From positions 1 through 42,530 of the forward strand of contig CBDVDH010000031.1 of NCBI GenBank assembly GCA_965372715.1: 42,530 nt of DNA, in the 5' to 3' direction. Origin of the DNA: an uncultured bacterium. Its GTDB lineage: Bacteria; B130-G9. Of the stretch, positions 1 through 14,677 are shown one piece after another; the stretch's first letter is position 1; the number at the start of each line of letters is the position of its first letter. Position numbers and translations under genes: made by a program. The notes under the pieces were generated by a model, which saw nothing but the letters and a program-made list of their open reading frames with translations, was not told the DNA's origin and searched no databases.

Positions 1-175
1 GGCTTTACTCGCTTATAGACCACGAGTTTGCCTTGCCTCGACCCCACATCACACACCTGAGGGATGGCTTGCACTAAATCCGGGTTACCTGCTCGGAAGC
101 GTTCGCCGCGCGGCGAAGAAAGCCGCACGTCCGGTTCTGTGAGGGTGAAAGCCAGTAATGGCTGAACTACTCGAC
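1..175 (+). mobile_element. 3' end of a group II intron (domains IV-VI); domain V appears damaged
   Basis: AAAGCCGCACGTCCGGTTCTGTGAGGG (119-145) matches the 3' half of DV and the linker. The DVI-like hairpin AGCCA-GTAA-TGGCT is followed by the typical ending CTACTCGAC (167-175). Confidence 0.8.
3..77 (+). CDS. C-terminal end of a group II intron reverse transcriptase/maturase (5'-truncated by the window edge)
   Basis: Frame 3 reads LYSLIDHEFALPRPHITHLRDGLH*. LPxPxIxH is a typical C-terminus of endonuclease-less bacterial intron-encoded proteins, and DV/DVI-like RNA follows immediately. Confidence 0.75.
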   Translation, partial: LYSLIDHEFALPRPHITHLRDGLH

Positions 176-334
176 GTGCGCCGCTTTCACTTGCCGCGGC
201 CTGACGCGGCGTGAGCACTGTTGGAGGACGTCCTATTCTCTGGATCACGGCTTCCAAGTTCAAAACAGATGTCCATCAGAGGGTGGTGTCGAGCCACCAC
301 CAATGAAAGCGGCGTCAAGCCGCCGCAGTCCAAA
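176..334. repeat. REP/BIME-like composite palindromic repeat (GGA[G/C]TGCGGCGG family), one end truncated by the intron
   Basis: The reverse complement starts TTTGGACTGCGGCGGCTTGACGCCGCTTTCATTGG and ends GCCGCGTCAGGCCGCGGC..AAAGCGGCG, matching both arms of the intact copy at 14504-14677. Confidence 0.8.
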
Positions 335-745
335 TCACCCATCGGGTGAAGACGCATCGCTACTGTATGCAACAAGAGAGGCCTCGTGAATGGCTCAGGC
401 GAGCTCAAGACGCGATGTCAGGGGCCATCAATCTGATTCTTGGGATCACGGTTCCGTCTTGACATTCGATGGTCATCAGTGCTTGATGGTGCAACCCGGG
501 GTGGTCTGTTGCCGGGGCATTGAATGGACTTTATCCTTCGCCACCCAAACGGGCTTCGTCGTCAGTTGGGATGTTCGGATAGCGTAGTAAGCGCCAAGGG
601 AAATCAGCAGCAGGCGTGGGTTTCGACCCATGGCTGAGATGAGACGAGAGCTCCTTAGCCGTGAAAGCGCTGAGTAACGTATGAAAACGACAGCAGGCCG
701 GCTTCGCTCAGCGATAGCCGTTCACGTCTGGCCGGATTGGGTGCG

Positions 746-1339
746 ATGACGCAGATTCTGCTCGTTGTATTCGCATATTTTCTGGGGTCGGTCTCGTTCG
801 GCTATCTTATTGGCCTGTTATCTGGCAAGGACGTCCGCGAGGTTGGCAGCGGCAACATCGGCGCGACCAACGTCATGCGAGCGGCGGGCAAGACGGCGGG
901 CATCATCACGCTCGTGCTCGACACGGCAAAGGGCTACGTGGCCGTCCTTTTGGCCGAAGGCTTCTCAGGGCCCGACGAATCACTCCCCCTGATATGCGGC
1001 GTCGCGGCCCTTTTTGGACACTGCTTCCCAGTCTTCCTGAAGTTCAGAGGCGGCAAGGGCGTCGCGACCGGCCTCGGTGTCTTTCTGCGCCTCGCCCCGT
1101 TCTACGTCATCTTCGCGCTGGGCGCGTTCCTGATCGTCCTCGCGATCACAAGGTTCGTATCGGCGGGCTCGATGGCCGCGGCGGCAACGATGCCAATCGC
1201 CCTTTGGATAGGAGGCGCCTCGTCCGAACGGGCCTTGCTGGCCGCAGCGATCGCCGCCCTCATTATCGTCAAGCACCACAAAAACATCGCCCGCCTCGTA
1301 AAGGGCGAGGAAAACAGGCTCGGCGCGAGGCGCGAGTAG
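746..1339 (+). CDS. plsY: glycerol-3-phosphate 1-O-acyltransferase PlsY
   Basis: AYFLGS, GSGNIGATNVMR, LDTAKG, GHCFPVFLKFRGGKGVAT and KHHKNIARL motifs; multi-pass membrane protein. ATG 746 (TTG 737 is an alternative start). Confidence 0.97.
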   Translation: MTQILLVVFAYFLGSVSFGYLIGLLSGKDVREVGSGNIGATNVMRAAGKTAGIITLVLDTAKGYVAVLLAEGFSGPDESLPLICGVAALFGHCFPVFLKFRGGKGVATGLGVFLRLAPFYVIFALGAFLIVLAITRFVSAGSMAAAATMPIALWIGGASSERALLAAAIAALIIVKHHKNIARLVKGEENRLGARRE

Positions 1340-10315: not shown

Positions 10316-10458
10316 CTGGTTTTTTGAGAGGAGTTTTCGTAATATTATGCCTTGATGCGGCTGGAAACGTGGTAGCGGGGTGAGTTTGAGGGATTCCGGC
10401 GCCAGAAACTTTTGCAGTCTGGTCAGGAGGCGGGACTGTTCGAGAGTGATGCTTCAAT

Positions 10459-10661
10459 GCCCTGAAGGGGCATCATGTGGGTAGCCGTGGGTTTCAACCC
10501 ACGGATCAAGGCCAACAGAGCGACCTTTCAACCCTGAAGGGGTTGAACAAAGAGGAACCGTACGGAGAGTGTTCAACCCCTTCAGGGTCGAGGATGTCTG
10601 TGGATCGAACCGATTCCGTGGGTTGCACCCACGGCTACCATTGTGGTCCCCCTTCGGGGAA
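10459..10661. repeat. ~200-bp nested inverted repeat resembling HUH (IS200/RAYT-like) transposase-associated palindromic elements
   Basis: Hairpins CCCTGAAGGG, GGTAGCCGTGGGTTTCAACCCACGG and TTCAACCCTGAAGGGGTTGAA are mirrored by TTCAACCCCTTCAGGGTCGA, CCGTGGGTTGCACCCACGGCTACC and CCCCTTCGGGG. Confidence 0.75.
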
Positions 10662-10872
10662 CCGAAACGCAGCATCACGTCAACCCTAATTCCACTTTTT
10701 TCTTGACCAAAACCAAGCCGCACAGCCAACAACCCAACACTCCTTAATCAGAGAATACGAAAACTCCCGTTATTTGTGGAGCTGTGTTGCAGCGGGCTGG
10801 CGCTAGTGATACGGTTCTTGACGCTATGGGCTGGACAGCGGCACTGCAAATGCACAACACAATCGAGGCGGT

Positions 10873-14503: not shown

Positions 14504-14677
14504 TTTGGAGTGCGGTGGCTTGACGCCGCTTTCATTGGCGGTGACCTGGCACCGCCTTCCCAGAAGTGCTTTCTTGGCGGTGAACGGACGATTTCATGAA
14601 CCGGGAATGATCAATCGGAGCGGGTGCCGCGTCAGGCCGCGGCGAGCCAAAGCGGCGTCAGGCCGCCGCACTCCAAA
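14504..14677. repeat. REP/BIME-like composite palindromic repeat (intact copy)
   Basis: TTTGGAGTGCGGTGGCTTGACGCCGCTTT at one end and inverted AAAGCGGCGTCAGGCCGCCGCACTCCAAA at the other, plus an internal hairpin GCCGCGTCAGGCCGCGGC. Confidence 0.85.

Follow-up and report, generated by a model that had tools for sequence, protein, structure and literature searches.

The window analysed here is the whole stretch of 42,530 nt read from base 1 of contig C31, which belongs to a 112-contig assembly of an uncultured bacterium (genome G000), and its left edge falls inside a group II intron. Since the contig begins within the intron, the 5' junction of this copy lies outside the window and could not be linked to it. 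The 3' end is where a reading made from the sequence alone (the sequence-only reading) had placed it, at position 175. The terminal bases read ...CTACTCGAC, and the domain V-VI model RF00029 was matched at positions 118-175 with 25.6 bits against a gathering score of 40, the alignment having 6 nt where the model has 22. Immediately downstream the sequence continues as GTGC-GCCGC-TTTCAC, the remainder of a composite palindromic repeat (type 1), which together with a second dispersed family forms a repeat mosaic upstream of a plsY-like gene. The features of the window are listed in Table 1.

Table 1. Features of the window discussed in the text
Feature	Position	Strand	Basis
Last 175 nt (3' end) of a degenerate group II intron with its ORF deleted	1..175	+	RF00029 match and exact 55-nt contig overlaps
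RT/maturase C-terminus remnant (~last 45 codons), frameshift near 52-56 relative to the C51 copy	3..139	+	tblastn
16-nt palindrome TTCGCCGCGCGGCGAA, at the place of the 10-nt domain V 5' strand CCGGATGCGG of intact relatives	102..117	+	comparison of copies
Remaining domain V 3' strand, domain VI, and 3' splice site (...GAACTACTCGAC)	118..175	+	RF00029 alignment, fold
GTGC, first 4 bases of the 3' exon, rest of the hairpin loop	176..179	+	repeat alignment
Rest of the composite palindromic repeat (type 1)	180..334	+	BLAST, alignment
Type 1, 3' stem strand GCCGC	180..184		
Type 1, inner hairpin	193..210		
Type 1, intact right arm AAAGCGGCGTCAAGCCGCCGCAGTCCAAA	306..334		
Second dispersed repeat family adjoining the type-1 repeat	304..447	+	copies on C82, C5, C44, C16, C39, C30, C15, and C13
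ORF of the plsY-like gene	737..1339		
Type-2 element, first unit of an inverted pair	10452..10504	+	
Type-2 element, second unit of the pair	~10606..10672	-	
Intact, unoccupied type-1 repeat with both arms (sister copy)	14504..14677	+	BLAST

The type-1 repeat was characterised by BLAST comparison of window positions 1-700 with the whole assembly, which produced 108 HSPs, 30 of them near full-length copies of positions 176-334, and by a pattern scan of the assembly, which located 101-103 type-1 arms. In the alignment of the 30 copies, 28 open with the head TTTGGAGTGC, followed by a GC hairpin made up of the stem strand GGCGGC, a 5-nt loop such as TTGAC, and the stem strand GCCGC, and the copies terminate in an inverted arm. 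The two exceptions were found on C38, where the repeat is occupied by an intron derivative, and on C74, where the left end is different. The ~17 nt that had been described as missing from the window repeat are exactly TTTGGAGTGCGGCGGC plus one loop base, and they are also absent from its twin on C51. The copy in the window that had been taken for the intact sister is a genuine member of the family, but it is a distant one that aligns at the arms only; the closest intact copy is that of C42, at 91%. These repeats are short GC-rich palindromes that occur in many copies and between genes, in which they resemble REPs, the intergenic position being that of the copies in the window. None of the four Y1_Tnp matches has a type-1 arm within 1.5 kb, and by this measure the repeat has no RAYT link.

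Because assembly was interrupted at repeats, the remainder of the window intron is located on other contigs. Contig C51 carries the same intron 3' end and flank, with 95.6% identity to C31 over 364 nt plus an 89-nt insert, and exact 55-nt overlaps join the end of C48 to the start of C51 and C51:167-221 to C31:1-55. The upstream continuation of the window intron would be C51:1-166 and, before it, the end of C48, giving an intron path (C48-C51-C31) of 699 nt that is based on assembly-graph overlaps with no spanning read. There is one full-length 5' junction contig (C48) against two 3' junction contigs (C31 and C51), and C48 may belong to either. It is scarcely credible that the assembler created the junction at the contig start by chimerically joining sequences at a repeat. 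The window does start exactly 55 nt before its first difference from C51, which is a de Bruijn graph branch point, but the same junction lies in the interior of C51, C38, and C50, of contigs of two related genomes (G001 and G003), and of a metagenome contig.

The intron 5' start, GTGCGTCCTGAAAG, occurs four times in G000 (C48, C13, C38, and C50), each time directly after a repeat arm (...GGAGTGCGGTGGCC, ...GCGGCGGGT, ...GCGGCGGCT, and ...GGACTGCGGCGGCC), and all four intron ends begin with GTGCG, in agreement with the GUGYG of group II 5' ends. Upstream of the arm the four sequences are unrelated, and within the arm the 5' exons differ from one another (GGTGGCC, GGCGGGT, GGCGGCT, and GGCGGCC). 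All own-genome junctions are at one loop position, both on the 5' side (4/4) and on the 3' side (4/4; C31, C51, C38, and C50). A ~245-nt derivative on C38 and a 34-nt remnant on C50 have both of their junctions within one repeat each, and a stem / 5-nt loop / stem hairpin is restored when the insert is taken out of either. These two copies and the arm junctions therefore place the insertion site one loop base beyond the 5' stem strand. The central observation of the sequence-only reading, that a group II intron occupies the loop of a hairpin in a palindromic repeat, is confirmed, and the repeat is an abundant one. The copy of C13 (C13:72482-72531 and C107:1-53) is interrupted by an element whose ends are inverted (TTAACCCGAATAATTCA... 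and ...TGAATAATACGGATTAA), probably an insertion sequence whose body is unassembled; its C107 part is also cut off in domain IV and fused to a repeat arm.

Junctions were collected from G000 and from four related genomes (G001, G002, G003, and G006), giving a total of 17 5' junctions, 4 from G000 and 13 from the relatives. One of the 14 5' ends initially obtained from the relatives by pattern search, on contig C175 of G006, was a chance match in an rpsD leader and was dropped. Besides G000, 4 of the 6 other genomes of the window's own family contained the intron, and it was absent from all 54 of the more distant genomes sampled. A scan of the genome contigs with an internal 18-mer returned 10 loci, which comprised 5 intron copies with junctions already counted and 5 chance matches, and it revealed no further species with the intron. 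Thirteen of the 17 5' junctions are located at one nucleotide of the type-1 arm (4 in G000, 3 in G001, 5 in G003, and 1 in G006), and the same insertion position is used in three genera. The other four (3 in G001 and 1 in G002) have a second type of context, ...(small hairpin)...G(T/A)AGCCGYGGGY^, where the caret marks the junction. On the 3' side, 14/17 junctions are in type-1 repeats, including one in the repeat's inner hairpin (G001:C46), 1/17 is in the second context (type 2), and 2/17 are elsewhere.

The intact type-2 element reads GTAGCCGTGGGT-GCA/TTCA-ACCCACGG, so that the intron is again positioned at the border of 5' stem and loop, and the type-2 3' junction of G001:C73 shows the matching remainder, GCA-ACCCACGG. 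Type-2 elements have a GTAG head, which is described for REPs in the available text of PMC3733652, and they flank Y1_Tnp (RAYT-like) genes on C28 (inverted) and C41. The window itself contains an inverted type-2 pair ~100 nt apart that resembles a REPIN doublet (Table 1), each unit consisting of a small hairpin followed by GTAGCCGTGGGT, a loop, and ACCCACGG. The proposal that a multicopy REP family serves as the homing site is supported for the type-1 repeat, in which most junctions are found and the outer flanks differ, but it has to be widened to include a second, unrelated REP family. The repeat arm that had been expected upstream of the intron was found at the 5' exons of the other copies, if not linkable to the window copy itself, and neither a 5' flank other than the missing arm nor a scatter of homologous introns over unrelated sites was encountered.

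A metagenome scan with the first 17 intron bases returned at least 120 stretches, of which 80 were examined; the pattern was unspecific and only four loci (L089, L106, L129, and L134) were used. Most of the examined matches to GTGCGTCCTGAAAGCTG (loci L086-L165) were not this intron, but either a leader reading ...ATG followed by GTGCGTCCTGAAAGCTGGACCAGACCAGCGGGTG.GAGTCCCG... or introns of other lineages. The conserved leader, which is preceded by TA-rich promoter-like boxes, is possibly a riboswitch-like RNA. The introns of other lineages have 5' exons ending in ...RGGY, and another set of related introns has the conserved 5' exon ...ATGAATAATNCRGGY in common.

The intact relative, L106, occupies bases 506-2400 of a metagenome contig (1895 nt) and encodes an RT of 460 aa with a TIGR04416 score of 361.9 bits (cut-off 300). 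RVT_1 was the only Pfam family of this protein at E <= 0.01, and there was no endonuclease match. The window intron had been called endonuclease-less; the window copy has no reading frame, and the term applies only to the protein of this intact metagenomic relative. RF00029 was matched with 62.3 bits both in L106 and in G003:C43, and RF02005 (group-II-D1D4-6) with 95.9 (L106) and 106.9 bits on intact relatives; the C48 part of the G000 intron scored 51.6 bits (gathering 49). The 3' flank of L106, TCGC-ACCGC-TTTT..., comes from a repeat arm of the same kind. Bases 1-505 and 506-2400 of the contig form a head-to-tail pair of intron copies that are not separated by an exon (...CTACTCGAC^GTGCGTCC...), which is either a true tandem or a recombination product. 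The GTGCG-starting 3' exons of G000 (n=3) may be related to such a tandem, for example as the start of a deleted second intron copy. An RT fragment from G003 was compared with solved structures, and the best matches were IIC RTs (3e-41 for GsI-IIC and 9.2e-38 to 1.6e-36 for others), followed by LtrA (IIA, 2.7e-30) and a IIB RT (4.3e-16); classes D-F have no solved structure for such a comparison. By this similarity, the lineage appears closest to IIC and may be regarded as class-C-like.

The candidate EBS1 is a 6-mer in the 9-nt hairpin loop of the RF02005 model, after GCCGATG in domain I. In 7/9 copies it pairs at 5-6 of 6 positions with the last 6 bases of that copy's own 5' exon (Table 2). 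Of the remaining two, the candidate EBS1 of G001:C22 fits the type-1 arm, though this copy is in a type-2 site, and the 5' exon of L106 in this comparison is the preceding tandem intron copy. The candidate EBS1 also changes with the target, GGCCTC being found with GAGGCT, GCCTAC with GTGGGT, and GATTGC with GCAATC. A cross-pairing control gave a mean of 4.7 with the own exon versus 4.2 crosswise, and is weak because most targets are alike; the weight of the pairing evidence lies in the three co-varying cases. The pairing with the REP arm, a check proposed in the sequence-only reading, is borne out to this extent: the candidate EBS1 both pairs and co-varies. About 90 arms in G000 carry an IBS1 that pairs 6/6 with GGTCGC, only 3 of which are occupied, and the fourth occupied arm, on C13, reads GGCGGGT and pairs 5/6 with GGTCGC. 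No rule was found for EBS3/IBS3, the first 3'-exon base varying (G, C, T, A).

Table 2. Candidate EBS1 and the last 6 bases of the 5' exon in nine intron copies
Copy	Candidate EBS1	5' exon	Paired positions
G000:C48	GGTCGC	GTGGCC	6/6
G003:C152	GGCCTC	GAGGCT	6/6
G003:C182	GGCCGC	GCGGCT	6/6
G001:C38	GCCTAC	GTGGGT	6/6
L129	GATTGC	GCAATC	6/6
G003:C65	GGCCTC	GCGGCT	5/6
G001:C46	GGTCGC	GCGGGT	5/6
G001:C22	AGCCGC	CGAAGT	1/6
L106 (tandem)	GCGCTC	CTCGAC	1/6

It is very improbable that the introns recognise an ordinary upstream stem-loop and a short IBS1 in the canonical IIC manner, their place in the loop of the next hairpin being incidental. A hairpin of 5-6 bp (e.g., CACCC...GGGTG or ATGCCC...GGGCAT) is present upstream of all 4 type-2 and several type-1 sites, and the use of 5'-exon stem-loops by IIC introns is known (PMC1702495). 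However, this hairpin ends 18-21 nt before the insertion, compared with a stem-loop-to-splice-site spacing of 3-11 nt in the available text of the same source, and no such hairpin was found at 3/4 G000 sites (C13, C38, and C50). The one feature shared by all sites is a 5' stem strand whose end coincides with the junction and which pairs over 6 nt with the candidate EBS1.

The G000 introns are extensively decayed. The intron path keeps only the C-terminal ~50 codons of the RT (...RRSQK...LPRPHITHP...), and tblastn with the RT of the intact relative placed residues 417-434 at window positions 3-56 and residues 430-460 at 44-139 in another frame, the loss from the window-type copy amounting to ~1.3 kb of RT gene. 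An RVT_1 profile search of the whole 95.9%-complete assembly produced no match, and the RT remnants detected in G001 by tblastn have stops and deletions. Compared with intact forms, the G000 intron has extra domain I inserts of 36 nt and ~44 nt. The latter belongs to a small imperfect-palindrome repeat of ~40 copies with the core ...CTTCGCCATAGTAGCC-loop-GGCTACGTCGGCTGAA..., which sits in domain I of the G000 copies (path ~160-205) and, in a longer reverse form, in domain IV of C51 only (C51 251-339). All 9 of the G000 and G001 copies that cover domain V have TTCGCCGCGCGGCGAA in place of its 5' strand CCGGATGCGG, which is intact in G003 (3/3) and L106 (2/2); the fold of the lesioned region has a z of -1.7 versus -4.7 and -4.3 for intact relatives. 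The window copy has neither a canonical domain V/VI (RF00029 score of at least 40 bits) nor an RT in domain IV. With its domain V disrupted, it has most likely lost the ability to home, and the present G000 copies, judged from their sequences, appear to be inactive relics of earlier insertion.

The TTCGCCGCGCGGCGAA that replaces the domain V strand belongs to a 16-nt palindrome family (mostly of this sequence) with 74 copies in the genome, which include window positions 102-117, C5:49290, C5:49800 (locus L216), C16:37665, C24:50382, C6:84916, and ~70 others. The palindrome is found at the tip of hairpins or in place of one of their strands, in intron domains V, II/III, and IVa as well as in both REP types. 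In two pseudo-copies of tRNA-Asn, GGTAGAG-CAGGTGGCTG-TTAACC has become GGTAGAG-palindrome-TTAACC, the part affected being the 5' strand of the anticodon arm, and in domain V as in the tRNA copies the 16 nt stand in place of exactly 10 nt that follow ...AGAG. A small GIY-YIG-like ORF is located at ~690-930 (- strand) of locus L216, on C5, between a tRNA-Asn gene and the palindrome-bearing pseudo-tRNA-Asn. Two hairpin-seeking elements might prey on each other here, namely the REP-homing introns and a palindrome that overwrites pre-existing hairpins by an undescribed structure-directed replacement, possibly driven by a RAYT, thereby inactivating introns. We consider this speculation rather unlikely; if it were true, palindrome replacement would be what inactivated the introns here.

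Part of the spread of these elements is difficult to attribute to the intron RNA. A 363-nt derivative that lacks most of domain I is present at two different G001 sites (C40 and C17) with exact intron ends, and an inactive RNA could not by itself have placed it there. The domain V lesion is common to at least 7 G001 copies at different sites, and was spread either by conversion or by a lesioned form that is still mobile, the latter contradicting the reading of these copies as dead. Contigs C31, C51, and C38 share the GTGC 3' exon, and the first 35 nt of their 3' exons are identical. In intact arms this place is taken by TGAC or CGAC, and GTGCGCCGCTTT occurs four times in the genome, 3 times at intron-occupied sites, once at an unrelated site on C99, and in no empty repeat arm. 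The shared bases therefore fit common descent or conversion better than three independent homings, and the claim of homing has to be qualified, some of the spread probably being due to DNA duplication or conversion.

On a more radical version of this argument, the intron entered one repeat once and was from then on a passenger, copied or converted together with the repeat (as a MITE- or REPIN-like unit) or with larger segments, and homing played no part. Besides the common GTGC loop and exon start, such a history would suit the similarity of C31 and C51, which extends over ~270 nt of 3'-flanking sequence (with 91% identity for the repeat copy that ranks next), and the occurrence at more than one site of non-ribozyme derivatives with exact ends (363 nt in G001; ~245 nt and 34 nt in G000). 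It is nevertheless quite improbable, given that the four G000 5' exons differ within the arm and have unrelated upstream sequences, that the repeat body of C38 is only 81% identical to that of the window, that insertions are also found in the inner hairpin (G001:C46) and in a second REP family with a matching change of the candidate EBS1, and that the position is identical in three genera.

The reading that we prefer, with a probability of roughly 0.8, is that an IIC-like intron lineage retrohomes into palindromic repeats by EBS1 pairing and that the window copy is a relic of it; it builds on several observations, namely where the junctions lie, the family of repeats, the pairing and how it co-varies with the target, the loss of the ORF, and the replacement in domain V. 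Under retrohoming, the 6-nt EBS1 in domain I would pair with the 5' strand of the terminal GC hairpin and the first loop base, so that the intron would enter at the 5'-stem/loop border (...GCGGCGGC-Y^YGAC-GCCGC...), presumably through reverse splicing, the hairpin DNA being single-stranded or melted. In sub-lineages whose EBS1 is different, the intron would take the same structural position in the type-2 REP, GTAGCCGTGGGT^GCA-ACCCACGG. The window relic would subsequently have lost most of its RT gene and gained small palindromic inserts, one of which replaced the domain V 5' strand, and its present place, within an intergenic repeat that precedes the plsY-like gene, appears to be harmless. Some copies, such as the C31/C51 pair and the identical deletion derivatives at two sites, may have arisen by DNA duplication or gene conversion.

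Class C introns aim at DNA stem-loops (terminators, attC), and the way in which they read the structure is a subject of current work. The copies described here and their targets provide a natural series in which the insertion is inside the hairpin, the stem strand is the predicted partner, and the exon-binding loop changes with the target across two REP families, and the intact relative makes the roles of base pairing and hairpin structure directly testable. They also suggest that retroelements of a poorly known, uncultured lineage find first a safe harbour and later a graveyard in REP-type repeats, and they document a route of intron decay in which the ORF is lost, palindromes become nested in the intron, and domain V is lost. 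In the annotation of these genomes, they account for contig breaks and for odd fragments of intron ends at repeats.

ORF-less derivatives of group II introns multiply beside RT-encoding copies, for example in Thermosynechococcus. The present elements resemble these in being internally deleted copies with exact intron ends at several sites, and differ in that the assembly has no RT copy, domain V is damaged, and there are forms of 34, ~245, and 363 nt without most of the ribozyme. With IIC introns such as B.h.I1 they share a compact ribozyme (domains I-III ~300 nt in intact relatives), multicopy and intergenic occurrence, an En-less RT/maturase (L106), an RT that is nearest to IIC among solved structures, and a DNA hairpin as target. 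Unlike B.h.I1, which inserts downstream of terminator-like stem-loops at a spacing of 3-11 nt (PMC1702495), they are inserted inside the hairpin at the 5'-stem/loop border (stem strand plus 0-1 loop base), and the predicted EBS1-IBS1 pairing involves 6 bp on the stem strand itself versus 3-4 bp after the stem. IIC-attC introns, which insert directly after or into the attC stem-loop (PMC7923331), are likewise a lineage specialised on a multicopy structured site, and their insertion can fall within a stem-loop; here, in contrast, the target is of REP type with no integron context, and the consensus is GCGGYGGSY^YGAC versus TTGT^T. REP palindromes are also landing sites of the mobile elements ISPpu9, ISPpu10, ISPa11, and IS1397, and a group II intron of Pseudomonas putida KT2440 is REP-associated in 2/9 copies (PMC1525189). 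That association is 22%, with no mechanism given in the available text of the report, whereas here 13/17 junctions are at one nucleotide, 4/17 are in a second REP, and the predicted base pairing co-varies. A literature search, mostly outside subscription journals, found no description of a REP-homing group II intron lineage. The element is best classified as a REP-homing variant of the known stem-loop targeting of IIC introns, apparently dead in this genome, and not as a new kind of element.
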